Below are positions 17,530 through 45,941 of a stretch of DNA of 64,000 bases, piece after piece. How positions within the stretch are numbered: the stretch's first letter is position 1; each line of letters begins with the position of its first letter. This DNA comes from a plasmid. Location: sequence record NZ_CP081674.1; one strand, 5' to 3'. The position numbers and the translations under genes are program-made. The notes under the pieces were generated by a model. That model made no database searches, had not been told where the DNA came from, and saw only the letters and a program-made list of their open reading frames with translations.

Positions 17530-18600
17530 TCATTGTGGTGGTGGTGTTGGTGTTGTTGTGCTGCCGGTTGGGATGCCGTATCGGTCAGTCCACACCAGCC
17601 AGCCCCATCCGCGGCTGTGCGCGAAACTGCGTCCGGCGTCGAACTTGTTCTGATTCACCGCGTACCCGACCTCGTAGATCGGCTTCACCTCAATCAGCAC
17701 CGTGCGGCCATCGCGCAGTTGTGCCACGACATCGGGGTAGTACGGCCTTGCCTGACCGCCCCACTGGTAACGGACACGTACGGGTTGTTCTTGAAATGTT
17801 TCCACCAAGGAGCTGTCGTTCAAGATGCGCAACAGCCGCGCCTCGAACCGGCTATCCCAGGCGGCCTCGCGGCCCAGCTTGTCGAGAAATGTTGCGCCGC
17901 GTCCTTCTTCATCGATATCTACGCGGCGAGCCGCGCGGCTGGGAATCGGGAAGGGGGACATGGTGGTGTCGGCCGGCCACTCGACGTGACTGAGCCAGCG
18001 TTGCAGGTGTGAGGTGGCGTAGGTGTCGGCTACGACCGCTTTGCGCTCAATGCGCTCTAGCTCTCGCAGCCGATGGCGGACTCTCCCGACTCGGGAGCGG
18101 ACCTCGTTGGCAAGCTGTTTGGTGTCGGACACCCGATGCCCGGCGAGGCGTAATTTCATGACTGCGAAACTCTTTGTCAACGGGCCGGTCTCGGTCGCGC
18201 ATGCCTCCAGAGCGAGCCGCCGAACAACTGGCTCAACATCTGCGGCGGGACCGTACCGCTCAGTCAACGTATCGCGGGCATTTCTATCCTCCACAGACTT
18301 GAGAGCCCGGCCGGCCACTCGCATCACGGAACGGTCGACGAGTTGGCGGACCCGCTCGCGTGAAATCCCATGTTGGTCGCCGATCTCCTGCAAGGTGGCG
18401 CGATCCTGGCCGTCTAGGCCGAATCGGGCCGTCAAGATGCTGCGCTCGTAGTCATCGCGGGAGTAGCGGCTCAGCATCGAGGACACCAGCTCGTGGACCG
18501 GTGCGACGTCGCAGCCCAGCTCATCGAGCCAGACGCAGAAAGGATCGACGTCACCGGGATGTACCAGCGGCGGTGGAGACAACGGCTGACGGCAGGCCAT
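17530..18600 (-). CDS. sigma-70 region-4 HTH fused to TnsA-like PD-(D/E)xK endonuclease domain
   Basis: The N-terminal part 'DYERSILTARFGLDGQDRATLQEIGDQHGISRERVRQLVDRSVMRV' is a sigma70_r4-type HTH. The C-terminus 'VRVRYQWGGQARPYYPDVVAQLRDGRTVLIEVKP' matches the TnsA N-terminal endonuclease motif (…Y.PDF…vEVK). Confidence 0.55.
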   Translation of the reverse strand: MACRQPLSPPPLVHPGDVDPFCVWLDELGCDVAPVHELVSSMLSRYSRDDYERSILTARFGLDGQDRATLQEIGDQHGISRERVRQLVDRSVMRVAGRALKSVEDRNARDTLTERYGPAADVEPVVRRLALEACATETGPLTKSFAVMKLRLAGHRVSDTKQLANEVRSRVGRVRHRLRELERIERKAVVADTYATSHLQRWLSHVEWPADTTMSPFPIPSRAARRVDIDEEGRGATFLDKLGREAAWDSRFEARLLRILNDSSLVETFQEQPVRVRYQWGGQARPYYPDVVAQLRDGRTVLIEVKPIYEVGYAVNQNKFDAGRSFAHSRGWGWLVWTDRYGIPTGSTTTPTPPPQ

Positions 18601-18681
18601 GGGATCAAACGCTAGCGGTGACTTCCGACATGCGGTGGCCGGTAGAGGTGGTTGGGCGGCAACGGGTCATCCGCGCCTGCA

Positions 18682-20157
18682 TCAACAATCTCGGGTTCGG
18701 CTCCACCACCGTCGCACACGGGGCGTGCGCGAGGGCAACTCAGTAACCGGCCGCGTTTCCTGCTCGACGGCGGGTTTGCCAGGCTGTGGGGGAGCGACTC
18801 CGAGCACAGCGGTGCGTATGGCTTCGAAATCGCGCCGACGCCATGCGTCGAAAAGTGCAATGGTCGTGACGACCGGGATCGTCAAAGACTGCACGAATTC
18901 CGGTCTCGTGTACGCCTGGTGGGCGCGGTCGCCGGGATAGGTCTTGATCTGATGGTTGATGACGAGCGAAACGCCCTCAATCGCAACGTCTGGCCGTAGG
19001 GCTGACCAGGTGTCGAGGTGTCTCCGTGCATCTCCAACAAGTTTCTCTGAGGCATTGCCCGACTCGCTTTTGACCTCGACCAGGCGCTGTCGAGCTTGGT
19101 AGGTGACGAGTAGGTCAGCGCTTGCAGTGTTCTTGAGGTCGCTGTCGAGGGGAACAGCCGTCATCCCGGCGTCCGTCAGCACTGCCGCGACAGCATCCTC
19201 GAGAGATGTGGACCTGCCGTACAACAGGTTGAAACGCACCTCGTCTGCAGCGGAACGGGCTTCCTCGAGTATCTCGTCGAGCTGCTCGCACTGCACCCGG
19301 TATTGCTCGTCGAGTTCCGCCCGGGCCGCAGCCGCGGACGTTTCGGCAACAGTCTGCAGGGCAGGATCTTCGCCGAGATTGGCGTGGATTCGGCGTACCG
19401 CCGACGGCACGAACTCTGGAATGGCATGCTGCGCCAGCCATTCCAGAACGGTCTTCCAGGACGACAACCAAGGAATGATGTAATGACGGAGCTGCTCATC
19501 CGGGGAGATCCACACCGCGGCGACCACTTCCCCGGTTGTCGAGACGAGCAGGGGCTGCAAGGAGCCGTCGGGTTCCACCTTCTGCCCCGGTCCACCGCTT
19601 CCGGAGAAGATCATCGTTGCGCTGCGGTCCAGCGTCCACCAGTCCATGGCGAGATCACGTGTGTTGATCAGCCGTAATGCCAGGTCACGATCGGCACGTC
19701 CCAAACCTTCGACGATTGCGGGAACGACAACAAGTGGCGTGCGAAAGCCGCCCACTGAACCAAAACCATTCGCAGAGCCTGGAAGGTCGACACGTTCGTC
19801 AGCTCCGCCGAAGATGTCCCGGACATTCATCTCCGATGGTGGTCTGGGATGCCCGATCATCGACACCGCCAGTGCGACCTCGTTTCGATGACGTGACCCG
19901 GTGATGAACCGTGTCCACTCGGCCGCGCCGCGGTTGAAAACCTGGCTGGGTTCGATCGCGGCAAGCGCTCCGCTGCTGTCCTCACCGATCCACCGTGGTG
20001 TCAAACCGAGAGTGCGCCAGTCGAATTGCTCCGAGGTGAGCGTTGGGCGGACCCCTGTGCCGCCGAGGGATTTGTATCGCTTCACGGAGCCGTTGGGTAC
20101 CTTGTCCCACAGTGCCGGCGGCGGGTAGCCGATATGTATGTCGTACGCCTCAGCCAC
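18682..20157 (-). CDS. hypothetical protein with C-terminal PD-(D/E)xK restriction-endonuclease-like motif
   Basis: 491 aa; the C-terminal part 'ASADLLVTYQARQRLVEVKSESGNASEKL…INHQIK' matches a D…(E)VK…K nuclease core. The N-terminal 350 aa has no recognisable family. It lies 81 bp upstream of the sigma-r4::TnsA-like gene on the same strand. Confidence 0.45.
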   Translation of the reverse strand: MAEAYDIHIGYPPPALWDKVPNGSVKRYKSLGGTGVRPTLTSEQFDWRTLGLTPRWIGEDSSGALAAIEPSQVFNRGAAEWTRFITGSRHRNEVALAVSMIGHPRPPSEMNVRDIFGGADERVDLPGSANGFGSVGGFRTPLVVVPAIVEGLGRADRDLALRLINTRDLAMDWWTLDRSATMIFSGSGGPGQKVEPDGSLQPLLVSTTGEVVAAVWISPDEQLRHYIIPWLSSWKTVLEWLAQHAIPEFVPSAVRRIHANLGEDPALQTVAETSAAAARAELDEQYRVQCEQLDEILEEARSAADEVRFNLLYGRSTSLEDAVAAVLTDAGMTAVPLDSDLKNTASADLLVTYQARQRLVEVKSESGNASEKLVGDARRHLDTWSALRPDVAIEGVSLVINHQIKTYPGDRAHQAYTRPEFVQSLTIPVVTTIALFDAWRRRDFEAIRTAVLGVAPPQPGKPAVEQETRPVTELPSRTPRVRRWWSRTRDC

Positions 20158-20434
20158 ACGACGAGGGTAACCGCCAGTTCAGACATGCCAGCATGCTTTG
20201 CCGCCTACAACGTCGCCGCCGGGCCAAACATCATCGACAGTTCCCAGCGCACCAGGTCGATCCCGTTGCGCACCCGCGGATCGTCGGGATCTAGGCCTTC
20301 GGCTACCGCGGCGAGCCGCTCGTCAGCATCCATAACAGGTTCGACGCAGCGTTGGCGCGTTTGGTTCCACTGACCCGGAGCGCTTCCTCAACCCGCCTTC
20401 CCCAGCCTGATGCTGCACGCCACCGCATCGAGTT

Positions 20435-21124
20435 TTCGGTGGAGTTGGGGTGGGTGTTGGAGGTTGGTGGTGGTGTTCGTTCATACTGCGGGGCATGTCA
20501 CTTGATGCGCTTGTGGCCGAGGCCGGTCAGGTGCTCGGTGACGCGCGCAAGATGTTTGGGCCTGCGCCGGCGGCCGGCGGATGGTCGAGCACACCGGCGC
20601 TGAGCGCTGGTAAGGACAGTTTGGCCCAGGCCGGGGGAGTGCTGGCGGGGTGGGGCGGAGCGAGCGCGACGACGCATCTGTCGGCCAGCGGCGGTCGTGT
20701 GGTGGCTCTGGACAATGTGATCGGCGCTGATCGAGGAACTGCGCCGGGTTTCACGGGGGCGGCCCAGACCTCTCAGTCTGGTGGTGGCGGGATGGACGAC
20801 GTCAACGCCGACACGCGTAGGGGAGTGGCTGCGATTGCTCCGAGCACCGACACCCCGGCCGGTAAGACGCAGCTGGTCAATCATCTGCAGTCCCAGCTCG
20901 ACCGTGCCAAAGCGTTGCTCAAGGTTTCCGAGTCGCGCAACGTGATGCTGGCCAATGCGATTCGCAGCGCTGCAGGAGGCTATGGCGGCGGTATGCCGAT
21001 GGGTGGCGGTATGGGTGGCCCGATGGGCGGCGGGATGCCCATGGGTGGCGGGGGAATGGGCGGTGGTGGACTACCCGGCCTCGGCGGCGCCGGCCTGATC
21101 CCCAACCTCTCCGCCTTCACCCGC
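20435..21124 (+). repeat. copy 2 of ~690-bp perfect direct repeat
   Basis: See copy 1. Confidence 0.85.
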
Positions 21125-23029: not shown

Positions 23030-23470
23030 ATGGCGGACACACCGAGCGGCACTCCTCAGACACGCGGCCTGTGCCGCTACGACAATCCCGACAAGTGGTT
23101 CCCACGGCACCCCGTGCCACGCGCCCGCGTCATCCGGATCTGCAACAACTGCCCGTTTCAGCCTCAATGCGCCCAGGCCGCCCTCGATCTCGCAGAAACC
23201 GACGGCGTCTGGGCAGGCGTCCAGCTCCCGGGTGACCGCGCCGAAGACGGCGACATGGATGAGGCGCGCGAGAAGCTTCGCAAGGTCGCCGCGCGACAGC
23301 TCCATCCTCAGGAGTTCAACCGCCGCAACGACATCGCAGCCGCAATGCGCTTCGTCGCCACCGAACAACGCAAGTTCGACCAGGCATGGACCAACGCCCA
23401 CGCCGAACACACGCGCCGTCGCGCCATTACTGCCGTCGCCGCCGCCCGCAAGGAGCAGATCGGTGCCTGA
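23030..23470 (+). CDS. WhiB-like (Wbl) Fe-S transcription factor
   Basis: Four Cys in the canonical spacing 'CRYD…WF…C(x2)C(x5)C…GVWAGV', followed by a basic/helical tail. Confidence 0.7.
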   Translation: MADTPSGTPQTRGLCRYDNPDKWFPRHPVPRARVIRICNNCPFQPQCAQAALDLAETDGVWAGVQLPGDRAEDGDMDEAREKLRKVAARQLHPQEFNRRNDIAAAMRFVATEQRKFDQAWTNAHAEHTRRRAITAVAAARKEQIGA

Positions 23471-25933: not shown

Positions 25934-27058
25934 ATGACCCGGGCACACAAGTATCGCGTGTCCACACTCGATCGCGCCCAGCACAGCGCGCCCCGTCCCA
26001 CCCTGTCACCGTACTTCCGCGACGACCAGGTGACGCTGTACCACGGCAAGGCGCTCGACGTCGCACGCGAACTGCCCAGTGGCTCAGTGGATTGCATCGT
26101 CACCAGCCCGCCATATTTCAACCTCCGCGACTACGGTGCCGAAGGACAGTACGGGCTGGAGTCAACACCAGCGGAATACGTTGCCAACCTTCGAGACCTC
26201 TTCAGCGAGCTGCGCCGCGTCCTCACCGACGACGGCACCCTATGGCTCAACCTCGGCGACACCTACAGCACCCGTGCTGACGCTTCAGCTGGGCCAACCT
26301 CAGGACGCAGCCGACCCGACGTCATGCCCGGGCGAATCAACACCACCGGCACCATCGGCCGGAAGCAGCTCCTCGGAATCCCCTGGAGGGTGGCCTTCGC
26401 GCTCCAGGATGACGGCTGGATCCTGCGCCGAGACATCGTCTGGGAAAAGCCCTGTGCCAAACCCGAAAGTGTCACCGATCGACCGTCATCACGACACGAA
26501 TATGTCTTCCTGCTCACGAAATCACCGAACTACTGGTTCGACCTCGACGCCATCCGCGAATCTCACGCTGAGACCAGCATTAAAAGGGTAGCCGCCCACC
26601 GCTCACCAACAGGACGCGCTGCCCGTGAAGGCAAACCCTATGTCGGAGAAGGGAAGCGGGAAACGATGCGCCTCGACCAAATGAACCACCCCCGAGGTCG
26701 CAACCCCGGCGACGTCTGGTCGATCAGCACCATCCCATTCCCACACGCTCATTTCGCCGTCATGCCACCCACACTGGCCCAAAAGTGCGTCATCGCCGGA
26801 TACAAACCCGGAGGGATCGTCCTCGATCCGTGCAACGGTGCAGGAACAACCGGCCTGGCAGCCCAACGCACCGGGCGCCGATACATCGGCATTGATATCA
26901 ACGCCGACTACCTCGACCTCTCACTACGCACACGTCTGCGCGACGCCACATTGGACTTCTGCGTCGTCGACTCCGCCGCCGACATGCCCGAACCCAACGG
27001 CGATGGCCACGACACAGCCCCCACTCTCTACAGCATCGCAAGCGAAGACGCATCGTGA
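25934..27058 (+). CDS. DNA methyltransferase (N6-adenine/N4-cytosine, beta-class; ParB-MTase-like), orphan
   Basis: 'DCIVTSPPYFNLRDYG' (motif IV S/D-PPY) appears early, and the AdoMet-binding region 'VLDPCNGAGTTGLAA' (motif I) appears late, which gives beta-class order. No adjacent restriction endonuclease is recognisable. Confidence 0.75.
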   Translation: MTRAHKYRVSTLDRAQHSAPRPTLSPYFRDDQVTLYHGKALDVARELPSGSVDCIVTSPPYFNLRDYGAEGQYGLESTPAEYVANLRDLFSELRRVLTDDGTLWLNLGDTYSTRADASAGPTSGRSRPDVMPGRINTTGTIGRKQLLGIPWRVAFALQDDGWILRRDIVWEKPCAKPESVTDRPSSRHEYVFLLTKSPNYWFDLDAIRESHAETSIKRVAAHRSPTGRAAREGKPYVGEGKRETMRLDQMNHPRGRNPGDVWSISTIPFPHAHFAVMPPTLAQKCVIAGYKPGGIVLDPCNGAGTTGLAAQRTGRRYIGIDINADYLDLSLRTRLRDATLDFCVVDSAADMPEPNGDGHDTAPTLYSIASEDAS

Positions 27059-27980: not shown

Positions 27981-28790
27981 ATGAGCGCCGTCAACCCTCG
28001 CGCGGCGGCGGCCCGAGCTCGCCGTAAAGCCCTTGCCGAGCAGGGATGGCGGAACTTCTGCGCCGCGCTGGGCTACCCAGATCCCGACACCATCACCCAG
28101 GAGAGGACAATATGGCAGGAAAGCGACGCACAGGTCCGGGCCAAGATCAGCCCGATCTGTTCAGCATCCTCGACGGGGAAGGTGGCAGTGACCAGCCCGG
28201 AGATACGCCAGATCGTGGACAACATCTACAGCCAGCACCTCCAACTACCCCAGAACTGGACCGCCGGCCAGCGCGAGAAGTTCCTGGAGAACGAGGCTTC
28301 GCGGATCAGCCTGCAGATCGCGGACCTAGCAGCCCAAATGGGGGAGCAGGCCGTTCAACACTGGCAGAACCAGAACGGTCACCCGCCGGACTATCTGACC
28401 AAAGTCGGGCTGCTGAACAACGCCCGGTCGCAGGCGATGGAAACAGTGCTCAACAACGAACTCTACGAACAGATTCCCCAGACCGAGGACCCCAACGATC
28501 TCGAAGCACCGACGACCGAGACACTGGCTCGCAGCCAGGTGCCCTGGGATCAGCGCTGGACGAGCCCCCGGTATCGCAGCGAGCCCAGCGAGCAGATCGA
28601 GGACCTGGCCGCGGCGATTTGGCCGGCCCCGGATTTCTCGGCGGTGTTTCGGATCAAGGCGCAGTATCTGCTGGCGGCCCGCGCCGAGGACCAGCTTCCG
28701 CTGCCCACCCATCAGCACGACCCGCTGGCCGCGACACTGGCCGACCTGGTCTACAACGATCTGCGCCACGACGGCCTGCCAGAGCGCTAG
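27981..28790 (+). CDS. hypothetical protein (Gln/Trp-rich, natural composition) immediately upstream of methylase-helicase
   Basis: ATG at 27981 is preceded by a perfect SD AAGGAGG at 27969-27975. The composition is clearly coding, unlike the overlapping Arg/Gly/Pro frame of the giant ORF. Confidence 0.5.
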   Translation: MSAVNPRAAAARARRKALAEQGWRNFCAALGYPDPDTITQERTIWQESDAQVRAKISPICSASSTGKVAVTSPEIRQIVDNIYSQHLQLPQNWTAGQREKFLENEASRISLQIADLAAQMGEQAVQHWQNQNGHPPDYLTKVGLLNNARSQAMETVLNNELYEQIPQTEDPNDLEAPTTETLARSQVPWDQRWTSPRYRSEPSEQIEDLAAAIWPAPDFSAVFRIKAQYLLAARAEDQLPLPTHQHDPLAATLADLVYNDLRHDGLPER

Positions 28791-31700
28791 CCCAACCCTC
28801 ACTTTTCGACGAGGTCGTCGACCAACCCACCGACCCACGCACGATCGACCCCGGCGGCCACGAACTTCCGCCACCGCAACAACCGGCCGAGCCCGTCCCC
28901 ACGCCAACGGTCTCGGCCGACCCCGACCAGCCGCAGCAGGATGTCGACCAGACCGCGCCCGGGCCGACAGCCCCCACCACACCGACGGCGGCATACCGAA
29001 CCCCGACCGACTTTCCCGCCAGCACCGACACGCTAGTCCCCTCCGGAGCGAAGGCACGCGTCCGCGCCAACATCACCGCGATCGAGCTGCTCGAGAAGCT
29101 GCGCGAAGCCGACCGACCCGCAACCACCGACGAGCAGGCAGTCCTTGCCGCATGGTCGGGATGGGGAGCGGTGCCAGCAGTGTTCGACCACCGCAACGAC
29201 ACCTTCGCCGACCAACGTCAACGCCTCCACGACCTACTCACCCCCGATCAGTACCGCCAGGCCGAAGCCTCGGTACTCAACGCCCACTACACCGATCCCG
29301 CTCTGGCTCAGATCATCTGGCAAGCAGTGCGGCGTGCCGGATTCTCCGGTGGCCGGGTCCTCGAACCCGGATGCGGCAGCGGCACATTCATCAGCCACGC
29401 ACCCGAAGACGCGGTCATGGTCGGAGTCGAGAACGACGCGATCACCGCGGCGATCGCTGCCCATCTGTATCCCTCGGCCCAGATCCGACATGAAGGGTTC
29501 GAAGCCACACGCGTCCCCGAGAACAGCTTCGCCGCGGTCATCGGCAACGTCCCCTTCGGCCAGTACGTCATCGCGGACCCCAGCCACAATCCTCAACGCC
29601 TGACCGTCCATAACCACTTCATCGTGAAATCGTTGGCCCTGACCGCCCCTGGTGGATACGTCGCGGTCCTCACCAGCCGCTACACCCTCGATGCCACCAA
29701 AGACACCGCCCGCAGCGCCATCGCCGGATACGGCGACCTCATCGGAGCAGTTCGACTGCCGTCCAAGGCATTTAGCCGAGTCGCCGGAACCGACGTGGTC
29801 ACCGATCTGCTCATCTTGCGCCGCCGCGACCCGCAACAGCCCGTGCCCGATGTGGTCCCAGAGTGGGTTACCACCACCGCACCCATGCTCGACGACGAAG
29901 GCGAGCCCACCGACCTGTTCATCAACAGCTACTACGCCGCCCACCCCGGTCACGTACTGGGCAGTATGCGGATCGGTCGAGGCCTCAACGGCTCACCCAG
30001 CCTCGCCGTCGGCGGCGAAACCGGGCCCGCGCTGGCGCAGCAGCTTGACCAATGCCTGACCGAAATCATCGATGACGCCATCGACAGCAGCCGCGGCCTC
30101 ACCGCCACCGTCGGCGACCTCACCGTCGTCTCTGCCGAAACCTTCGACCCGGGCCTGATCACCGCCGCCGACCGTGGCGACGAGACGCCCCTCTACACCC
30201 TGCGCTACAACCCCGAGACCAAGAGAATCGACTACTGGTCAGGCCACGCCTGGGAGCCAAACAAGACCCCGAAGTCTCGACTGGGCGAGACCCGTGAACT
30301 GATCGCCCTCCGCGACGTCGCCACCAGCCTCATTCACTCCCAACGCGACGGCCGCCCGCAAGCCGAGCGTGACCAACTGCGCGGCCACCTCAACACGCTC
30401 TACGACAACTACGTGCGCCGGCACGGTCCGATCAACCGATTCACGTGGGTCCACCCGAAAGAGATCACCCAGGCGCGTCACGATGAAAAACTCGCCGCCA
30501 CCGAGGCCCGATGGCGGGAAAAGGAAGGACAACCCGGCGCCCCGTACCGTGGCCCAATCCCCGACGAGCTACTCGCACAATGGGACAGCGCCGCCTGGGA
30601 AGCCCCCGCTCCCTACAAGAAACGGTCCCATCTAGACGGAGGCATGCGCCACGACCCCGGGTGGGCCATCGTGTGCGCGCTGGAGGACTTCGACGAAGAC
30701 ACCGGGCTGGCCCGCAAATCCCCGATCTTCTCCACGGACCTGCTCACCCCAGCCCCCGAACGAATCCATGCTGATACGCCCGAAGATGCACTGGCGATGA
30801 GCCTGGACCGCAACCTGCGGGTCGATCTCGACTACATCGCCGAGCTGCTCGAAGTTCCCGTCGATGACGCCCGCGACCTGCTCGACGGACTGGTATATCC
30901 CAGCCTCGACGACCCCGACGAGTTGATCCCCGCTGTCACCGCCCTATCCGGCAACGTGCGTCGCAAGCACACCGAAGCTGCGCTCGCGGCTGAGCACAAC
31001 CCGGTGTATCGCCGCTATGCAGAGGTGCTGCGCGATCTGGTCCCACCCGACCGCACGGCCGACCAGATCAAGGTACGACCCGGAGCACCGTGGGTCGACG
31101 CACGTTACATCGCTCAGTTCGCCGAGGAAACCTTCGGGATAACCGATGTGATCGCCGAGCACCTCGGCGGCCGCTGGACCGTCGATGTCGCCAAGTACAA
31201 GCGCCACGGCCGGCTCATGACCGAGACCTGGGGACTGGACCGTGATCGCTGCGACGCGGTGAGTCTGCTCGAAGCCCTCTGCAACTCCCGCAGCATCGTT
31301 CTGCACACCGATGAAGGTGTGCTCGACACCCAGGCGACCTTCGCCGCACAGGCCAAGTGCGACAAGATCACCGAAGAGTTCCAAAAGTGGATCTTCAACG
31401 ACCCACAACGCACCGAGGTTCTCGTCGCCGAATACAACGAGCGATTCAACTCGTTGCGAGCGCCCAGCTACGACGGCTCCAAACTGCAGCTACCCGGATT
31501 GTCGGATCACTTCACGCCGCACTTCTACCAGCGCAACGCTGTCGCGCGCATCATCGCCGAGCCCGCCACTCTTCTCGATCACGTTGTGGGGGCCGGGAAA
31601 ACAGGCACCATGCTGATGGCTGCGATGGAGCTGCGCCGGCTCGGCTTGGTCCGTCAACCATGGATCGTGGTGCCCAACCACATCGTCGAGCAGGTCGGCC

Positions 31701-34264
31701 GGGAAGCCAACCAGTGGTACCCCGCAGCGCGGGTGCTTCTCGGGTCGGCCGCCACCACCGCAGAAGGACGTCGCCGGTTCATCGCCCAATCAGCTTCCAG
31801 CGATTGGGATCTGGTCATCATTCCGCAATCCGCGTTCACGGCGATCCGCGTGAACGCGGGTGTAGTGCGAGACTACGTAGAAGAGCAACTCGACGATCTT
31901 CGCGCGCAACTGGCCACCGCAGATTCTGACCGGACCGTCAAGCGCATCGAGCTCGCCATCAAACAGACCCAGGAGCGGCTGCAACGGCTCGTTGATCAGG
32001 CCCGCAAAGATCAAGGTCTGGGCTTTGAGAACTGCGGATGCGACTACCTGTTCATCGACGAAGCCCACATGTACAAAAACAAGGCCCGCGTCTGCAACAT
32101 CGAAGAGTTGTCCTGCCCCACGTCCAGCCAACGTGCAGAGGACCTCACCCTCAAACTGAGGATACTTCGGCAACGGCGGCGCGACGAGGCCCGCGCTGCC
32201 GGCATCCCCGAGGACAAGGTCGTCGAGCGAGTCGCCACCTTGCCAACCGGAACGCCGATCGCCAACTCACTGGGGGAGTTGTGGGTGATGCAGAGCTACC
32301 TGCGCCCCGACCTCATGCGCGACGCAGGTGTTGAAGACTTGGGCGACTGGGGCGCGGCCTTTACCACCACCGTCACGACCGTCGAAGTCAACGCCACCGG
32401 AACCAAGCTGCGGCCCGTCACCCGGGTCGGCAAGTTCACCAATCTGCCCGAACTTCTGGCATTGTCGTCGGCCTACACCGACGTCGTCACCCGCGACATG
32501 GTGCCGGTGAGATTGCCGGCCCTGCGCACCGGGCAGCGCCAAATCGTCAGCCTGCAACCCGACATCCAGGTCAGCGACTTCATCGCCGATCTGGGTTACC
32601 GAGCCGACCACCTCGACGCCCGGCAGGCTCACCGCGACAACACCCTCAAGATCGCCAACGATGGCCGAAATGTGTCGCTCGATCCACGGCTGGCGCACCT
32701 TCCCAAGCCCGCCTACAGCCGCGCCGAAGCCGTGTCCGACCGCATCATGGGCGTCCACACCCGGCTGGCCGACCGCGTCTACCACGACATGGACACCGGA
32801 GAACCACTCGACCGCACCGGCCCGTTGCAGATCGTGTTCTGCGACCGTGGCACACCGTCTAAAGACCCCAACCAGTTCACCATCTACCAGGCCATCAAAG
32901 ACGAACTCATCGCACGCGGGATGCCGGCCTCAGCGATCAGATTCGTTCATGAAGCACGCAAACCCAGCGAACTGAAAGCGCTTTTCGCCCAATGCAATCG
33001 CGGCGAGGTGTCGGTCTTGATAGGAAGCACTGAGAAGATGGGCACGGGCACCAACGTGCAAGCACGAGCTGCGGCTCTGCACCACGTCGACGTTCCCTGG
33101 CGGCCATGCGACCTCGAACAACGCGAGGGGCGAATCATCCGCCAAGGCAACCAGAACGAAGAAGTGGACATCTTCAACTACGTCACCGAGGGAACTTACG
33201 ACACCGTGATGTGGCAGAAAGTACAAGCCAAATCGCTGTTCATCGAACAGATGCGCCGCAAAGAGGTCGTCGACCTCGAAATCGAAGACCTCAGCGGCGG
33301 CGACATCGGCTCGGCTGCCGCCGAGACCAAGGCGATCGCCACCGGCGACCCCCGCTACATCCGGCAGGTCGAACTCGACGACGAGGTGCGCCGCCTTAGC
33401 TCCCTCGAACGCGCACATCACGATTCAGTACGGCAACGCGACTGGAGAGTCAGAGAACTGGAACGCTCAATTCCCCATCAGCACAACCAGATCGAAAAGC
33501 TCGACCCACACGTCGCCGACGTCGAACAGCATATCGCCAACGAAACGCCACTCAAGATTGCGATCGACGGGAAGACGTACAGCGACCGAGCCAACCAGGC
33601 CGGCGCCGTGTCGTCAGCGTGCCGCCAGGCCTACCACCGGCTCAAAGAGGGCGCCTCCCGCTTCGAGCCGATCGGCATCACGATCAACGGTGTGGAGGTG
33701 CTTGGTTCGCGCTCGCTCATGCACGACATGCTGATCCTGCGGCTGGCGGTACCCTCACGCACGTCCGACATCAAGAGCCACGATCTATTGGACACTGCCT
33801 CATCGGGGGAGACCGGCGCCGCCAAGGCACGCGGACTGGTCAAGCGTATCGAGAACCTCTACAGCGGACTGCCCGCCCATCGCGCCAACCTGCAGGCCAA
33901 CCTCGACAGCGACCAACGCCAACTCGATGATCTGCAGGCCAACCCACCCGCACCGTTCGAACACGGCGACCAACTCGACGCCAAAAAAGCCGAACTCGCG
34001 GCACTCACACTGGAGCTACGACTGGCAGCCGACAGCCCCGAAGGCAGGGAGAAGGCCCGCGCCGCCGACGAACGCATGATGATGCGCGGCCGCAAACCGG
34101 GATGGAGCCTGCTGCTGAACCCGACGCCGGCGGTACTGGAGGAAACCGGCTGCCCCACCGCCGATGTGCTGCGCCGCAAGATTGCCGTACGTGAGCGAAT
34201 GGCGATCGCTGACCACCATCGTGATCTCGACGACGGCACACCCGGCCACGAACACGAGCTCTAA
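28790..34264 (+). CDS. giant N6-adenine DNA methyltransferase :: SNF2/DEAD-box helicase fusion (phage P1 DarB-like / conjugative anti-restriction type); start codon unresolved
   Basis: MTase motif I 'VLEPGCGSGTF' and motif IV 'NVPFG'. Helicase motif I 'VVGAGKTGT', motif II 'LFIDEAHMYKN', motif VI 'QREGRIIRQGN'. The conserved N-terminal 'NITAIELLEKLREADRPATTDEQAVLAAWSGWGA' resembles the N-terminus I recall for proteins of this class. The ORF is open from 28046, but its 5' 745 bp overlap the 27981..28790 gene in a compositionally non-coding frame. Confidence 0.8.
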   Translation, partial: AQPSLFDEVVDQPTDPRTIDPGGHELPPPQQPAEPVPTPTVSADPDQPQQDVDQTAPGPTAPTTPTAAYRTPTDFPASTDTLVPSGAKARVRANITAIELLEKLREADRPATTDEQAVLAAWSGWGAVPAVFDHRNDTFADQRQRLHDLLTPDQYRQAEASVLNAHYTDPALAQIIWQAVRRAGFSGGRVLEPGCGSGTFISHAPEDAVMVGVENDAITAAIAAHLYPSAQIRHEGFEATRVPENSFAAVIGNVPFGQYVIADPSHNPQRLTVHNHFIVKSLALTAPGGYVAVLTSRYTLDATKDTARSAIAGYGDLIGAVRLPSKAFSRVAGTDVVTDLLILRRRDPQQPVPDVVPEWVTTTAPMLDDEGEPTDLFINSYYAAHPGHVLGSMRIGRGLNGSPSLAVGGETGPALAQQLDQCLTEIIDDAIDSSRGLTATVGDLTVVSAETFDPGLITAADRGDETPLYTLRYNPETKRIDYWSGHAWEPNKTPKSRLGETRELIALRDVATSLIHSQRDGRPQAERDQLRGHLNTLYDNYVRRHGPINRFTWVHPKEITQARHDEKLAATEARWREKEGQPGAPYRGPIPDELLAQWDSAAWEAPAPYKKRSHLDGGMRHDPGWAIVCALEDFDEDTGLARKSPIFSTDLLTPAPERIHADTPEDALAMSLDRNLRVDLDYIAELLEVPVDDARDLLDGLVYPSLDDPDELIPAVTALSGNVRRKHTEAALAAEHNPVYRRYAEVLRDLVPPDRTADQIKVRPGAPWVDARYIAQFAEETFGITDVIAEHLGGRWTVDVAKYKRHGRLMTETWGLDRDRCDAVSLLEALCNSRSIVLHTDEGVLDTQATFAAQAKCDKITEEFQKWIFNDPQRTEVLVAEYNERFNSLRAPSYDGSKLQLPGLSDHFTPHFYQRNAVARIIAEPATLLDHVVGAGKTGTMLMAAMELRRLGLVRQPWIVVPNHIVEQVGREANQWYPAARVLLGSAATTAEGRRRFIAQSASSDWDLVIIPQSAFTAIRVNAGVVRDYVEEQLDDLRAQLATADSDRTVKRIELAIKQTQERLQRLVDQARKDQGLGFENCGCDYLFIDEAHMYKNKARVCNIEELSCPTSSQRAEDLTLKLRILRQRRRDEARAAGIPEDKVVERVATLPTGTPIANSLGELWVMQSYLRPDLMRDAGVEDLGDWGAAFTTTVTTVEVNATGTKLRPVTRVGKFTNLPELLALSSAYTDVVTRDMVPVRLPALRTGQRQIVSLQPDIQVSDFIADLGYRADHLDARQAHRDNTLKIANDGRNVSLDPRLAHLPKPAYSRAEAVSDRIMGVHTRLADRVYHDMDTGEPLDRTGPLQIVFCDRGTPSKDPNQFTIYQAIKDELIARGMPASAIRFVHEARKPSELKALFAQCNRGEVSVLIGSTEKMGTGTNVQARAAALHHVDVPWRPCDLEQREGRIIRQGNQNEEVDIFNYVTEGTYDTVMWQKVQAKSLFIEQMRRKEVVDLEIEDLSGGDIGSAAAETKAIATGDPRYIRQVELDDEVRRLSSLERAHHDSVRQRDWRVRELERSIPHQHNQIEKLDPHVADVEQHIANETPLKIAIDGKTYSDRANQAGAVSSACRQAYHRLKEGASRFEPIGITINGVEVLGSRSLMHDMLILRLAVPSRTSDIKSHDLLDTASSGETGAAKARGLVKRIENLYSGLPAHRANLQANLDSDQRQLDDLQANPPAPFEHGDQLDAKKAELAALTLELRLAADSPEGREKARAADERMMMRGRKPGWSLLLNPTPAVLEETGCPTADVLRRKIAVRERMAIADHHRDLDDGTPGHEHEL

Positions 34265-40744: not shown

Positions 40745-41842
40745 TTACACCATGGTGAGGTGTCGGGTGACGGGTTGATCGCTGGCGGTGCGAAATAGGT
40801 CAGCGCGTTGTGTGCTTGTGAGCAGGGTGATTTCGTCGAGTTCGGCGTTGGTGTATCCGGCCGCCAGGAGTTGTTCGAGCACTGAGCTGGTGAGTTTGGG
40901 TTGTTCGGCGGCGACGCCGGCCCGGTTCCCGTACATGCGGCCGGTCTCGTTGAGTAGCCGGAACATGGATCGGTACTGATAGTCGGAGAGGATGCCGCGT
41001 TCGCGGGCACGCATGACCAGTGACGACACGCTCACACCCCAGGTCAGGCGCAGCTCGTCGAGTTCGTGGACGGTGCGAATGGAGACCCGGTCCAGGTCGA
41101 ACGCGATGTCATCGATGGGCGCCAGGAATTCGGCGGCGAAGGCGGTGGCTCGGCGTTCGGTCTCTGTTGGGCTGACCAGGGTCATCGCGTCCATCACGAG
41201 GTGGCCGAGTTCGTGGGCGAGGGTCATCCGCATGCGGTCGGGAGGCAGGGCTGCGTTGACGTACACCAGATGCGGATGGTGCTGGTTTGCCCGCAGGGTT
41301 ACGGCGTCGATCTCGCGGTCGGCGAAGTCTTCGAGGATAACGAAAACTCCTGCGGCTTCCAGTAATTCGGCCATGGAACGGATCGGGCCGGCCACCCGCC
41401 AGAGGCGCCGCAGTACCTGCGCGGCGGTGATTTCGCCGTGCTCGGCGGCGTAGTCAGCGGGGTCGAGTTCGGGGAGCGCGAGCAGAGGTTCGATGTCCGC
41501 ACGCGCTTCGATGCGCCCGAGCCGCATCGCGATGAGGTTCGCTCGCGCCCACACGCGGTCACGTTTCCACTCCGCGGTGCTGGCATTGGCGCGGAAGTGG
41601 GTGCCTTCGGCCGGCGACCGGGTGAACGGGACGCACAACGCCTCGGGTGGGCACTGCAGGACTCGCGCGTAATCGAGCAGGGCTTTCCCGGCCAGAGGCA
41701 GGACACCGGATTCGACCTTGCTTACGTGTGACGCCGATACACCGACCTGGTCGGCCAACTTCTTCTTCGACCATCCGCAGGCGAGTCTGGTCAGCTGCAC
41801 CATCACGTTGTTCGCCTCAGCGTAGGGCTCCGGTGCCGTCAC
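40745..41842 (-). CDS. HTH-XRE :: ImmA/IrrE-family zinc metallopeptidase fusion regulator
   Basis: N-terminal HTH 'WSKKKLADQVGVSASHVSKVESG'; the HEXXH motif 'LAHELGHLVMD' lies in the C-terminal domain. Confidence 0.7.
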   Translation of the reverse strand: MTAPEPYAEANNVMVQLTRLACGWSKKKLADQVGVSASHVSKVESGVLPLAGKALLDYARVLQCPPEALCVPFTRSPAEGTHFRANASTAEWKRDRVWARANLIAMRLGRIEARADIEPLLALPELDPADYAAEHGEITAAQVLRRLWRVAGPIRSMAELLEAAGVFVILEDFADREIDAVTLRANQHHPHLVYVNAALPPDRMRMTLAHELGHLVMDAMTLVSPTETERRATAFAAEFLAPIDDIAFDLDRVSIRTVHELDELRLTWGVSVSSLVMRARERGILSDYQYRSMFRLLNETGRMYGNRAGVAAEQPKLTSSVLEQLLAAGYTNAELDEITLLTSTQRADLFRTASDQPVTRHLTMV

Positions 41843-42110: not shown

Positions 42111-42839
42111 GTGACGGCGCTCTTTGAGGATTCCGAGCCGCGGGACCGCGCGGTGTCGCGTAAGGAGGCGACCCGCTTGCTGCGGCAGGTCACTACCGGG
42201 GTCGCAGCGCTGCTCCTTGCCGCTGTCGATGACTGGAATGCCCTGTCCGAGCGGCACGCTGCGCACCTGCGCACCGAGTTGCACGGGCTGCTCCGGGGTT
42301 CGCATGTCGCCGGTCTCACTGCGGCAAGCACTGCGGTGTGGCTGGGCACGCAGGGCATGCACCCGCCTGGTCATATCGTGTCGAAACCGCATCGGTGGCC
42401 GATGATCAGCAGCCACGGCAAGACCTACATGGCCATCCACCACTACGAGATGGAACCGACCAATGCGCGACGCACCGCGTTCTGCAACCAGGACTCCGAA
42501 ACCTTGCGGCTCATCGATGCCGAAACCTCGTCTCTGATAGGCAATCCCACGCATTGCGAATTGACGTGGGACTACGACCCTTACACCGATGCGCACATCC
42601 GCCGGATCTGGGTCAGCGCCCCCAGCGTCGACTGGGCCAGATTCGAAGTTCCCATGGCCAAAGCCCAAGCCCAGCTCGCGTCCTGGCGCAAGCGCAAGAT
42701 GAAGTGGCTGCCAGGAGAGCTGCCCGCCGACATGCACGCGGTGGCACCGTTGCCGGCCCGCGACGCACAGGAGCGCCTCCAGCCAGGCATCGAGATTCAG
42801 CCGCCGCAGCGCTCGAAGGACGCCGGGGACGCCCAGTGA
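42111..42839 (+). CDS. hypothetical protein (GTG start), first gene of recombinase operon
   Basis: Natural composition; 'GAVVTALFEDSEP…'; its stop overlaps the GTG start of the recombinase. Confidence 0.4.
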   Translation: MTALFEDSEPRDRAVSRKEATRLLRQVTTGVAALLLAAVDDWNALSERHAAHLRTELHGLLRGSHVAGLTAASTAVWLGTQGMHPPGHIVSKPHRWPMISSHGKTYMAIHHYEMEPTNARRTAFCNQDSETLRLIDAETSSLIGNPTHCELTWDYDPYTDAHIRRIWVSAPSVDWARFEVPMAKAQAQLASWRKRKMKWLPGELPADMHAVAPLPARDAQERLQPGIEIQPPQRSKDAGDAQ

Positions 42840-43948
42840 GGGCGGCGCCGGTGACCGTGCACGGGCAACCGTCGTGGACGGTGGTCGACGATCATGGGTT
42901 GCCGATCGCAGAGGTCGAGCAGTTCCTGCACTGGTTGCGGGCGGTGGGACGCTCACAGAACACCGTCCGGTCCTATGCACGGCATCTGAGCTTGTTCTAC
43001 CGGTGGCTCTCGGCACGCGGAATCGCTTGGGATGCCGTCGTCTTCGACGGGTTGTGCGACTTTGTCGGGGCGCTGTCAGTGGGATTGCCGCCGCTGCAAA
43101 CCTGGCGTAACGGCCGATCACCAGCAACGGTGAAAGCAGTCAGCGCGGGCATCCGAGAGTTCTACGAGTTCCACCGGGTCGAAGGCCGGGGACCGCTCGA
43201 CTTGGTGCTGACCCGCAACCCGTCGAGGCTGCCGCGCCGATCGCACAGCTTCCTCGCACACGTCGAGCGGCGCCGCCCCAGCGAGGTGTCACGCTTGACG
43301 AGACCGGGCAAGGCTGCAGCGGAGACGGTGCAGGTGATCGACTTCGAGACCGACTTCACGCGGCTACTGGAGTCAGCGTCCACTGACCGGGACAGGCTGC
43401 TGCTCTCTGCCCTGTATGACCTGGGGCTGCGGGTGGGGCAAGCGTTGGGGCTGCGCCACGGTGACCTGGACCCGATGCGCCGACGAGTGCGGGTCTGCCG
43501 CCGGGAAGACAACCAGAACGGGGCCTTGTCCAAGCAGCGGGCGCAGTTCACCGTGGAGGCACCGCGGCGCTTTTTCGACCTGTACGCCGCATACCTGCTC
43601 GGCGAACTCGCCGATGTGGACAGCGATTACGTGTTCGTGAACCTGTCCCGGCGCCCGCGGGGTGGTCCGTTGTCGTACTCGAACGCCTACCAGCTGGTGG
43701 AGCGCATCGGCACCTCCGCCGGCGTCGACGACCTGCATCCCCACATGCTGCGTCACACCCACGCCACGGCGCTGGCGCGGGCCGGATGGACGGCCGCCGA
43801 GATCGCCGCCCGACTCGGCCAATCGCACGCCGCCAGCGCCGACGTGTACATCCACCTTGCCGGCGATGATCTGGCCGAGCGGCTGCGCCGTACCGAGCAT
43901 CTGGTGTGGCGGGCACCGCAGAACAGGGCTGGCAATGACACGCGGTGA
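42836..43948 (+). CDS. tyrosine recombinase (TnpA-like, ~370 aa)
   Basis: SAM-like N-domain 'VEQFLHWLRAVGRSQNTVRSYARHLSLFYRWL'. The catalytic region is 'LRHGDL…HPHMLRHTHATALARAG…DVYIHL' (R…H-x-x-R…Y). Confidence 0.75.
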   Translation: MRAAPVTVHGQPSWTVVDDHGLPIAEVEQFLHWLRAVGRSQNTVRSYARHLSLFYRWLSARGIAWDAVVFDGLCDFVGALSVGLPPLQTWRNGRSPATVKAVSAGIREFYEFHRVEGRGPLDLVLTRNPSRLPRRSHSFLAHVERRRPSEVSRLTRPGKAAAETVQVIDFETDFTRLLESASTDRDRLLLSALYDLGLRVGQALGLRHGDLDPMRRRVRVCRREDNQNGALSKQRAQFTVEAPRRFFDLYAAYLLGELADVDSDYVFVNLSRRPRGGPLSYSNAYQLVERIGTSAGVDDLHPHMLRHTHATALARAGWTAAEIAARLGQSHAASADVYIHLAGDDLAERLRRTEHLVWRAPQNRAGNDTR

Positions 43949-45941
43949 GTCCCGGACCGAATCCCGCGGCGTGCGCTCCCATCCGACACTGCGGGTCCCC
44001 GACGGCCCATGGTGCCAGCCGACCTGGCAGGTGGTCGAGGTGGCAGGGGATCGCCGCAGGCAGGCCGTCGACCCATGCGCGGTCGACGGCTGCGACGGCC
44101 CCCAATACTGGCTGGGCGGCCCCCGCAGCAACTCCGCCGCCACGTCAGGACTGTGCTACGCGCACTACTTCCAATGGTTCCGCGCCGGCCAGCCGGCCGA
44201 CTTCACGGCCTGGGCCCAGACCGGGTCGACACCGGTAGGGCCGCCACGCGGCCGCACTTGCACCCAAGTAGTCGACTTCCGTCGGTTCCCGCCGACGGCT
44301 GCCGACGAGGTCCGGTTCGTCGTGGCCACCAAGGTCGGGAGAGGCGACTGGACGCCCAACGCCAGCCTCCGCCGCGTCCTCATGGTGCTCGTCGATGCGG
44401 CCGACGGCCGGGTCACGGATTCGCTGACCGAACGGCCCGTGCACGATTGGCTTCTGCTCTGCCGACAGCACTGGCCGCATGCCAGCTCGTTCGACACGCT
44501 GTGCGCACCGTACATCCGGAGCTTCTTCCGCCTGCTCGACGGCGCCACCAACCCCGACGCGTGGACCAGCGATCATTGGCACTGGCGCGATCAATTCGAG
44601 TTCGTCCTCGACGCCACCCAATCGGGATCCACGCACACCGCCGTCGACTGGTCATCGGTACCGGTGCCCTGGCTTAAGGTAGCCGTCAAAAAGCTTGCAC
44701 GACAACAGCTCACCACCGCCACCCTGTCCTGGGGAACCCTCACCCAATGGGTGCGCGCCACCCGCCAGCTGGCCCGATTCCTCACCACCGACGGCACGGT
44801 TCCCGATCCACCCTCGGTGACCCGTTCGCTGTTCCTTGACTACCTGGCCTGGACCCGCCGTAGCGACACCGACGCGGACGCCCGGTTGGCCAACACCGGC
44901 GCATACCTGCTGGAGTCGTTGCACGAGACCGGGCTCGTCTGCGACCTGGGCTCGGCGATGTTTCTGCGCCGCGGCGAGAACGTCCACCGCAAGACTCGCA
45001 ACCCTCGCCCGTTCCCGCCGGACGTCGTCGAGCGCATCGACACCCTGATCGTCGACAACCCCGAAACCGACCCGACACTGCGGGCGATGATTGCCACGAC
45101 GCGATGGGCGGGCTGCCGAATCTCCGAACTGGTCGCCCTCCCGCTCGACTGCCTGCACCACTGCGACGGGGGCTACTGGATCGAGTACTGGATGACCAAA
45201 ACCAACGCATGGCGCCGGTTTCCCATCCCAGACACCTTGGCCACCGTCATCTTGGCGCAGCAGACCCGCGTTCGAGACACCTACGGCCCCGAGGCCACGC
45301 ACCTGTTCCCCGGGGCGCGATCGAGCGCCGCCGTCGGACGCACACAGCCCTGGTCCACCAGCGGTCTGCGGCACCGTCTCTCAGTCCTTTTTCGCGAACA
45401 TGGAATCATCTCGTCGGCGATCACCGGTGAGCCGATCTCCGGAGGGGACGTCCACCGATTCCGGCACACCGTCGGGATGACCCTGCTCAACAACGGATGG
45501 ACCCAACAGGAAGTGCGCGACTTCCTCGGGCATCAGAGCGACACCATGACCTCGACGTACGCTCGGATAACCGACGACACGCTGGCCCGCAAGGCACGCG
45601 AATTCTGGGACAACAAGCCCGAGAACCGGTCTGGGGGCGACGCGGGTGTTGAGCGGCTCCGCGCACGATTCGCCGCGGCCCTGCCCAACGGGTTCTGCAC
45701 GCTGCCGTCGGCGCAACGCTGCGAGTTTCGGCCCAACCCCTGCCTGGACTGCTCCTTCCACGACCCGGGCGGCCGGGTCTTCCTCGGCGCTCATATCGTT
45801 CACCGAGACCAACTGCAGCGCCTCACCGACGATGCTCGTGAACGCGGTGACACCGAAGCGGTCGAGCTGAACACGACCATGCTCGCCAAAGTCACCAAGC
45901 TGATCGCCGAACTCGACCCCGACAGCCCGGAACGCCCGTGA
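43935..45941 (+). CDS. tyrosine recombinase (TnpB-like, ~668 aa)
   Basis: C-terminal catalytic region 'HRFRHTVGMTLLNNGW…GHQSDTMTSTYARI'; long N-terminal extension; ATG 43935 overlaps the upstream stop. Confidence 0.75.
   Translation: MTRGESRTESRGVRSHPTLRVPDGPWCQPTWQVVEVAGDRRRQAVDPCAVDGCDGPQYWLGGPRSNSAATSGLCYAHYFQWFRAGQPADFTAWAQTGSTPVGPPRGRTCTQVVDFRRFPPTAADEVRFVVATKVGRGDWTPNASLRRVLMVLVDAADGRVTDSLTERPVHDWLLLCRQHWPHASSFDTLCAPYIRSFFRLLDGATNPDAWTSDHWHWRDQFEFVLDATQSGSTHTAVDWSSVPVPWLKVAVKKLARQQLTTATLSWGTLTQWVRATRQLARFLTTDGTVPDPPSVTRSLFLDYLAWTRRSDTDADARLANTGAYLLESLHETGLVCDLGSAMFLRRGENVHRKTRNPRPFPPDVVERIDTLIVDNPETDPTLRAMIATTRWAGCRISELVALPLDCLHHCDGGYWIEYWMTKTNAWRRFPIPDTLATVILAQQTRVRDTYGPEATHLFPGARSSAAVGRTQPWSTSGLRHRLSVLFREHGIISSAITGEPISGGDVHRFRHTVGMTLLNNGWTQQEVRDFLGHQSDTMTSTYARITDDTLARKAREFWDNKPENRSGGDAGVERLRARFAAALPNGFCTLPSAQRCEFRPNPCLDCSFHDPGGRVFLGAHIVHRDQLQRLTDDARERGDTEAVELNTTMLAKVTKLIAELDPDSPERP

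Follow-up and report, generated by a model that had tools for sequence, protein, structure and literature searches.

Two nuclease-like genes lie side by side at positions 17530 to 20157 of a 64,000-nucleotide (nt) stretch of plasmid DNA (sequence record NZ_CP081674.1; the whole stretch is referred to here as the window), and the question that they raise is whether they form one system or are independent genes that occupy the same site. A preliminary description of the locus had proposed a functional two-gene cassette. Gene 1 (17530..18600, minus strand) encodes 356 amino acids (aa) comprising a sigma-70 region 4, a helical linker, and a TnsA-like PD-(D/E)xK domain and is truncated at its 3′ end. 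Gene 2 (18682..20157, minus strand) encodes an intact, stand-alone protein of 491 aa that belongs to an undescribed actinobacterial family. Both open reading frames (ORFs) and the 81-bp separation between them were confirmed as described. The analysis presented here indicates that gene 1 and gene 2 are very probably not one system. The reading that we favor, and consider reasonably probable, is that the window contains a cargo hotspot with two unrelated, independently acquired solo genes, of which gene 1 is decaying and gene 2 is an intact, self-contained nuclease.

Loci encoding relatives of either protein were surveyed in tblastn searches for which 12 diverse members per family served as queries; the gene 2 loci were genome, metagenome, and assembly contigs, with flanks of up to 10 kb where the contig allowed. 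Gene 1 was present at 1 of the 43 other gene 2 loci, that of a near-identical contig of Mycolicibacterium houstonense (L002; 98 to 99% nucleotide identity), and at none of the remaining 42. Gene 2 was found neither at 10 other gene 1 loci (L011 to L014, L019 to L022, L055, and L056), one of which is M. abscessus plasmid pGD21-1 (L056), nor in M. wolinskyi (L057). Nine loci had been retrieved through relatives of gene 1 (L011 to L014, L019 to L022, and L057); they represent mycobacterial plasmid-like contigs and the chromosomes of Nocardia, Xanthomonas, and Actinomadura, and they showed no conserved neighbor, save that L057 shares the window backbone. All-against-all clustering of the flanking ORFs of 23 gene 2 loci revealed no conserved partner besides mycobacterial backbone genes, and a megablast search of the locus against plasmids returned nothing beyond the gene 2 relative of M. 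abscessus and a short match to the repeat. The co-occurrence check by tblastn that the preliminary description had suggested thus came out, in essence, against a cassette: the window and the M. houstonense contig are the only places where the two genes adjoin, and the pair is not conserved elsewhere in the survey.

Comparison of related plasmids showed what else can occupy this site. The pair is flanked by two plus-strand backbone genes that encode paralogous secreted cell wall hydrolases. The SLT-type gene (16389..17519; Pfam SLT, E = 5.9e-5; conserved in L001, L002, and L057) encodes a DUF4226-like, Gly/Met-rich N-terminal half and a C-terminal lytic transglycosylase (SLT) domain, and the NlpC/P60 gene (20450..21568; Pfam NLPC_P60, E = 2.2e-18; RipC-like in NCBIfam) encodes the same N-terminal half with a C-terminal NlpC/P60 endopeptidase domain. 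Between these two genes, the window holds truncated gene 1 and gene 2, M. houstonense L002 holds both together with an extra 3 kb, and M. wolinskyi L057 holds truncated gene 1 only (P60 / gene 1 / SLT). Plasmid 1 of M. abscessus 50594 (L001) has insertion sequence (IS) genes, gene 2, and two hypothetical genes, in that order from SLT to P60, and no gene 1. Relative to the M. wolinskyi backbone, the indel in the window (18643..20238) comprises gene 2 and nothing else. The extra M. houstonense segment (3.04 kb; L002 positions 12611 to 15649) lies between truncated gene 1 and the SLT gene. Its three ORFs encode products of 169 aa, 271 aa (with a bacterial PH domain and SHOCT), and 297 aa. This segment is missing from the window, where the corresponding junction is at 17545/17548, directly after the end of truncated gene 1. 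Because the same backbone carries either gene alone and the partner is missing elsewhere, the two genes are taken to be independent, and the interval between the hydrolase paralogues is a plasmid cargo hotspot. A further small ORF of the interval encodes 42 aa (MDADERLAAVAEGLDPDDPRVRNGIDLVRWELSMMFGPAATL; 20205-20333, minus strand) between the P60 gene and gene 2; its region aligns as DNA with M. wolinskyi L057 in a 76% block, which there lies directly before gene 1.

The perfect flanking repeats noted in the preliminary description were verified as an exact 690-bp direct repeat (16374..17063 and 20435..21124, both plus strand). Each copy consists of 15 nt of upstream sequence and the first ∼225 codons of a hydrolase gene, copy 1 being the 5′ part of the SLT gene and copy 2 that of the NlpC/P60 gene. 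The 5′ halves of the two hydrolase genes are 100% identical within each plasmid, over 690 bp in the window, 684 bp in L001 (5844-6527 and 12899-13582), and 706 bp in L057 (within about 8990-9700 and 11530-12235), yet between plasmids the same halves are only 74 to 85% identical. On the strength of these alignments, this contrast indicates concerted evolution of the paralogue halves, i.e., ongoing gene conversion. The repeats are therefore ruled out as insertion scars: they are homogenized halves of backbone paralogues, kept in L001 and L057 with other cargo, and the proposal that the pair is a mobile insertion between them fails, as an equivalent arrangement, with a separate identical pair in each, recurs in three diverged plasmids. 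A composite-transposon-like insertion was also rejected, as the repeats belong to backbone genes and no transposase lies between them in the window; nor does any transposase, TnsB/TnsC, or integrase gene adjoin the pair. The repeats probably make the interval recombinogenic, which fits its behavior as a cargo hotspot.

Gene 1 contains the two domains that had been ascribed to it. The sigma-70 region 4 helix-turn-helix is encoded at 18319..18450 (minus strand; aa 51 to 94; Pfam Sigma70_r4, E = 7.8e-10), and the TnsA-like nuclease core is encoded at 17581..17898 (minus strand; aa 235 to 340), with Pfam Tn7_TnsA-like_N matched at aa 266 to 339 (E = 4.6e-11) and the motifs YYPDVV and LIEVKP present. 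Both Pfam matches exceed the curated cutoffs. When searched against the PDB, a profile of the gene 1 family matched region 4 of RpoS, RpoD, and SigA (E = 4e-14), and the domain most closely resembles region 4 of group 1/2 sigma factors; the rest of the N-terminal half is a helical linker without a match to sigma region 2. The catalytic-type residues E253, D291, E305, and K307 are all present. Full-length family members are ∼400 to 530 aa long and have a conserved C-terminal domain of ∼80 aa with the signature ...IPELxxRxV...LDLIALTxxNRWRWERxPFRL. Homology of gene 1 to the family is restricted to aa 1 to 343 (compared with the 429-aa member P0123) and is followed by a nonhomologous tail of 13 codons and a stop codon (17530..17571, minus strand); no remnant of the C-terminal domain was found anywhere in the window. 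The copies from M. houstonense (352 aa) and M. wolinskyi (358 aa) have the identical truncation point, and the tails of all copies differ. As judged from these alignments, gene 1 is shown to be 3′ truncated, with loss of the conserved C-terminal domain, a feature that the preliminary description had not noted. Other fragmentary family copies encode 273, 205, and 203 aa.

In comparison with the M. wolinskyi copy, gene 1 had a ratio of nonsynonymous to synonymous substitution rates (dN/dS) of 0.36 at a synonymous divergence (dS) of 0.155. In the same comparison, the flanking backbone genes had dN/dS values of 0.06 to 0.18 and dS values of 0.9 to 1.5, and the shared hydrolase half had values of 0.10 and 0.66, respectively; comparison of gene 1 with full-length relatives gave a dN/dS of 0.15 to 0.20. 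Since 0.36 lies above both the backbone and the full-length comparisons, constraint on gene 1 looks relaxed, though not gone, and since a dS of 0.155 is far below that of the backbones, exchange of gene 1 between plasmid lineages seems to postdate the divergence of the backbones. Most simply, the window copy of gene 1 is a decaying remnant.

Gene 2 was characterized with an AlphaFold2 (AF2) model (predicted local distance difference test [pLDDT] score, 84.2) and an alignment of 29 homologues with 36 to 72% identity to the window protein. The model comprises an alpha/beta N-terminal domain (aa 1 to 260; 19378..20157, minus strand), a long single helix (aa 270 to 313; 19219..19350, minus strand), a PD-(D/E)xK domain (aa 316 to 452; 18802..19212, minus strand), and a disordered Pro-rich tail (aa 453 to 491; 18685..18801, minus strand; pLDDT below 50 for aa 457 to 491). 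The modeled C-terminal domain is compact and has the core expected of PD-(D/E)xK enzymes, with alpha-beta-beta-beta-alpha-beta topology, an Asp that opens strand 2, and a (D/E)xK motif within strand 3. D338, D348, E361, K363, E371, and H380 are invariant in the 29 homologues, and D348, E361, and K363 occupy the positions expected for PD...ExK. Both the conservation and the model thus bear out the restriction-endonuclease-like core that the preliminary description had placed here. The fold of the N-terminal domain, in the model, resembles class I glutamine amidotransferase and ThuA-like domains; an amidotransferase enzyme was ruled out, as the 29-sequence alignment contains no invariant Cys or His and no Cys-His-Glu triad. 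The hallmark of this domain is instead an invariant D156-R157-D158-L159 (the DRDLA motif). The modeled helix is probably a coiled-coil or dimerization element. At the end of the tail, a basic/aromatic RRWWxR consensus is kept in most family members despite the highly variable linker that precedes it; this consensus may serve as a short motif for docking or for binding to membranes or nucleic acids.

No Pfam, NCBIfam, PADLOC, or PHROG model matched gene 2 or 28 diverse relatives. PADLOC-DB v2, which the preliminary description had suggested as a check, gave only two chance-level hits (E > 0.02) to the 29 gene 2 family members; for gene 1, it matched only the sigma-4 stretch (MzaA, 19 bits). A profile search of PDB sequences with gene 2 produced only a chance coiled-coil match. 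The family is large: a profile search recovered 1,439 cluster representatives at E ≤ 1e-3, of which 245 reached E ≤ 1e-30. All named sources are Actinomycetota (Mycobacteriaceae, Streptomyces, Micromonospora, Lentzea, Saccharothrix, Geodermatophilus, and Isoptericola); relatives also occur on Rhodococcus and Kitasatospora plasmids, and 22 complete actinobacterial plasmids carry one. No family member was found in 50,697 phage records by tblastn or in an IMG/VR pattern scan. Comparison with the M. abscessus orthologue (L001) gave a dN/dS of 0.26. The C-terminal domain shares its fold and D...ExK motif with stand-alone nucleases of the AF1548, Mrr, NucS, and Hjc types, but the DRDLA-containing N-terminal domain and the long helix are absent from Pfam, NCBIfam, PADLOC, and PHROGs. 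Gene 2 further resembles single-protein defense nucleases that have an N-terminal sensor in consisting of one gene and in occurring on mobile elements and in defense island settings.

The N-terminal domain of gene 2 recurs with other partners. In sister proteins, it is followed not by the nuclease but by a linker, a stretch of hydrophobic residues that, on inspection of the sequences, resembles a transmembrane helix, and a small C-terminal domain; in two of these relatives (P0114 and P0330), which have a membrane-anchored C-terminal region, an AbiTii domain directly precedes it. A shared module joined to swappable effectors is a pattern typical of immune proteins. AbiTii is an N-terminal abortive infection module that is otherwise fused to HEPN effectors (PMC3710099; PMC13064643), and the relatives of the gene 2 N-terminal domain follow the same pattern of an N-terminal module with interchangeable effectors as AbiTii proteins (Lactococcus AbiT; Anantharaman et al. 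2013, PMC3710099); gene 2 of the window differs in that it lacks AbiTii (PF18864) and has an effector of a DNase-type rather than a HEPN fold. Some relatives occur in suggestive company. In Streptomyces sp. GMY02, one lies beside genes for LmuB_C, OLD-TOPRIM plus UvrD (Gabija-like), a Ser/Thr kinase, and Peptidase_M78/HTH (helix-turn-helix); another lies near SIR2 and HerA; and others adjoin toxin-antitoxin, Fic, and Dcm genes, one of them lying next to Dcm, Fic/VbhA, and PIN genes. No conserved methyltransferase or other neighbor was found beside gene 2 relatives.

Several observations weigh against two independent genes of which one is decaying and the other acts in defense, and these are considered here together with the competing explanations. 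The genes share a strand, no terminator is predicted in the 81-bp spacer, and a similar 21-nt element precedes both starts; gene 2 and gene 1 could conceivably be cotranscribed in the window plasmid, and few gene 1 loci were sampled (10 besides that of M. houstonense). One could read the shared strand, spacer, and upstream element, the PD-(D/E)xK folds of both proteins, and the retention of the pair in M. houstonense as signs of a cooperating two-nuclease defense or mobility cassette, a DNA-binding nuclease with a second nuclease, inserted as a unit between recombinogenic repeats. We regard such a cassette as very improbable, given that the pair is limited to one lineage at 98 to 99% identity, that no partner was found at 42 further loci with gene 2 and 10 with gene 1, that sister backbones hold either gene alone, that gene 1 is truncated, that the repeats are gene halves homogenized in every related plasmid whatever the cargo, and that the pair has no transposition or integration gene beside it. 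The 21-nt element (GCATGTCKGAASTSRCSGYTA) is an imperfect direct repeat, located 13 to 33 nt before the start of gene 1 (18613..18633, minus strand, at the edge of the gene 2 indel) and 11 to 31 nt before that of gene 2 (20168..20188, minus strand); it was found only at these two sites, from which the search pattern was itself derived, so that its restriction to them lends no independent support. The element might mark a recombination junction, or it might serve both genes in regulation or translation initiation; a promoter and terminator scan of 17300-20600 found nothing. Alternatively, truncated gene 1 might still function independently of gene 2, either as a sigma-region-4-guided nuclease or as a sigma-4 decoy for the RNA polymerase beta-flap or for WhiB-type regulators, to which it would bind. 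The reading frame is still open, the copies from the window, M. houstonense, and M. wolinskyi all retain the four catalytic-type residues after ∼11% protein divergence, and dN/dS is below 1, and the gene may keep some function; its low dS also suggests recent exchange between plasmids, and full-length relatives are retained on hundreds of conjugative plasmids. Region 4 of group 1/2 sigma factors, which its sigma domain most resembles, is the surface bound by WhiB proteins, and a WhiB gene is present in the window. A functional gene 1 nevertheless appears improbable to us: it lacks a C-terminal domain that all aligned full-length members keep, near-invariant residues included, its constraint is relaxed relative to the full-length comparisons, the truncated copies end in unrelated tails that differ from one to the next, and the family has left further fragments.

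For gene 2, the question is which role an intact nuclease of this kind would play. Its intact nuclease core, lack of an obligatory partner, and plasmid and defense island settings suit a self-contained conflict gene, and we give somewhat less than an even chance to its being a defense gene, that is, a single-protein defense or exclusion nuclease, the best supported of the roles considered here. Recognized defense systems lie within 10 kb at only two of the five Pfam-annotated gene 2 loci (L015, L016, L017, L053, and L054), and the absence of PADLOC matches leaves the defense role to genomic context and one domain fusion. The main rival is that gene 2 encodes a plasmid or actinobacterial housekeeping-type nuclease for DNA processing in conjugation, plasmid-plasmid competition, or resolution of recombination intermediates, and that its position between conjugation-associated hydrolases reflects this role. 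Gene 2 does lie between the SLT and NlpC/P60 genes on at least three related backbones (window, L002, and L001), a remnant of the hydrolase N-terminal domain adjoins the relative in L016, 22 complete plasmids carry a family member, and the structural neighbors of the C-terminal domain include the repair and resolution nucleases Hjc and NucS. We consider a housekeeping role unlikely: gene 2 is absent from the M. wolinskyi version of the backbone and hence dispensable for this plasmid type, relatives also occur on chromosomes in defense-island-like settings, no neighbor is conserved, and the N-terminal domain is common to AbiTii-fused membrane proteins. Restriction-modification was rejected, as the nearest methylase (see below) belongs to the backbone and is also present in L057, which lacks gene 2. 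For a defense or exclusion nuclease, the amidotransferase-like N-terminal domain would serve as a sensor or regulatory module, the 44-residue helix would mediate dimerization, and the C-terminal PD-(D/E)xK domain with its invariant catalytic residues would cleave DNA, so that a single gene carried on plasmids and in defense islands would act once triggered through the N-terminal domain. More tentatively still, the family may constitute a widespread actinobacterial group of single-protein immune nucleases (∼1,400 clusters at 50% identity) in which the new N-terminal domain senses infection or incoming DNA and releases a dimeric DNase, with the same domain reused alongside AbiTii and membrane modules; on conjugative plasmids, such a protein could protect the host or exclude rivals. 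What survives of the preliminary proposal of a defense or mobility module is that a conflict or mobility role is reasonable for this mobile element and that defense is plausible for gene 2 alone; the two-gene module itself does not stand.

Gene 1 belongs to a family that is annotated in databases and uncharacterized. Its members are found on the chromosomes of Nocardia, Xanthomonas, and Actinomadura as well as on mycobacterial plasmids and conjugative plasmids of enterobacteria. By tblastn, full-length relatives were found in 293 plasmids, 282 of which are conjugative plasmids of E. coli, Shigella, Salmonella, or Klebsiella. Identity to gene 1 is 48 to 89% for mycobacterial plasmid proteins and 26.5 to 27.5% over aa 8 to 343 for enterobacterial proteins. 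One enterobacterial plasmid was inspected, E. coli pL2-87 (L055, NC_025145.1; IncK2/Z, an IncI-related group), on which a 528-aa relative with the same two Pfam domains (8656-10242) lies immediately downstream of the surface exclusion gene excA and upstream of a hok/gef toxin gene; the excA-adjoining protein is WP_000004560.1. No ORF of matching size or annotation is present between excA and pndA in the gene table of pESBL (PMC4288162). A literature search on the fusion of sigma region 4 with TnsA yielded nothing directly relevant beyond a single-sentence mention of an RpoD-like/TnsA-motif gene on an M. abscessus mobile element (PMC9934374). With the family represented by WP_000004560.1 and that M. 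abscessus gene, gene 1 shares architecture, clear homology, and occurrence as a solo gene on mobile elements; the window copy differs in being truncated past aa 343. Nocardia genomes contain many chromosomal paralogues (P0140 to P0199). In four aligned Nocardia members, D291 is exchanged for Thr or Ser and K307 for Gln or Glu (YYPT/FYPS and LIDVQ/LIDVE), and this replacement of the active-site Asp and Lys suggests catalytically inactive derivatives retained for another role. A full-length relative on a 76-kb metagenomic plasmid-like contig (L013, 6505-8100) lies ∼2 kb from genes with weak RAMP/Csf3 matches, which may represent a type IV CRISPR-Cas module.

Three known identities were considered for gene 1 and rejected. 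In TnsA, the C-terminal domain that follows the nuclease core contacts TnsC. Gene 1 has the PD-(D/E)xK catalytic domain of Tn7-type TnsA (PDB 1t0f and 1f1z), with its Glu, Asp, and Lys residues, but its family adds an N-terminal sigma region 4 helix-turn-helix and a helical linker that TnsA lacks, and the window copy is without any C-terminal domain. No tnsB, tnsC, or tnsD gene was found within 10 kb of gene 1 in the window or in 8- to 10-kb flanks of L011 to L014, L019 to L022, and L055 to L057 where the contig allowed, and gene 1 scored 43 bits against NCBIfam NF033179 (TnsA_like_Actin), for which the cutoff is 110. A Tn7-type transposase subunit was excluded on these grounds, the absence of TnsB/TnsC, the missing C-terminal domain, and the score below the cutoff. 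A sigma-70 family sigma factor was excluded as well, as region 4 alone is present and region 2 is absent, and so was MzaA of the MZA antiphage system, to which only the sigma-4 stretch is similar (34 bits against an NCBIfam cutoff of 800, with the PADLOC match of 19 bits covering the same stretch).

The surroundings of the hotspot look like a mycobacterial ESX/ParA-type plasmid or plasmid-like element. The closest relative is the M. houstonense DSM 44676 contig (L002), which is 97 to 99% identical to the window. The window encodes ParA (13940-14920), WhiB (23030-23470), a PE/PPE protein, DUF4226 proteins, and tyrosine recombinases. The preliminary description had reported no cognate methylase, TnsB-type transposase, or ATPase partner nearby. 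An N6_N4 DNA methylase gene (25934-27058), which it had not mentioned, lies 5.8 kb from the pair, as part of the backbone and not as a cognate enzyme. It is also present in L001 and L057. The gene for a 2,072-aa helicase-domain protein (28046-34264; ResIII, Helicase_C, and a weak SNF2 match) is likewise part of the conserved backbone, and L057 contains a large helicase-domain ORF, too. The two look like typical conjugative plasmid establishment genes and not like partners of the nuclease genes. Farther along, a gene for a Peptidase_M78 protein with a helix-turn-helix domain (ImmA/IrrE-like; 40745-41842, minus strand) is followed by two overlapping tyrosine recombinase ORFs (42338-43948 and 43662-45941, plus strand); the segment 40745-45941 points to an integrative module or a nested mobile element inside the window.

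The locus comes down to two genes: a truncated representative of a known, unstudied family and an intact one of a large nuclease family that is undescribed and has suggestive links to defense. The locus illustrates how hydrolase paralogues, with ∼700 bp kept identical by gene conversion, frame a hotspot at which plasmids swap cargo. The sigma-region-4/TnsA-like family spans mycobacterial plasmids and hundreds of clinically relevant conjugative plasmids of E. coli and Shigella, and on pL2-87 its member adjoins excA; a role in plasmid biology is worth seeking. Gene 2, in turn, flags a large family that is missing from Pfam, NCBIfam, PADLOC, and PHROGs and in which a new N-terminal domain is joined to an intact nuclease core, in contexts that suggest a function in defense.

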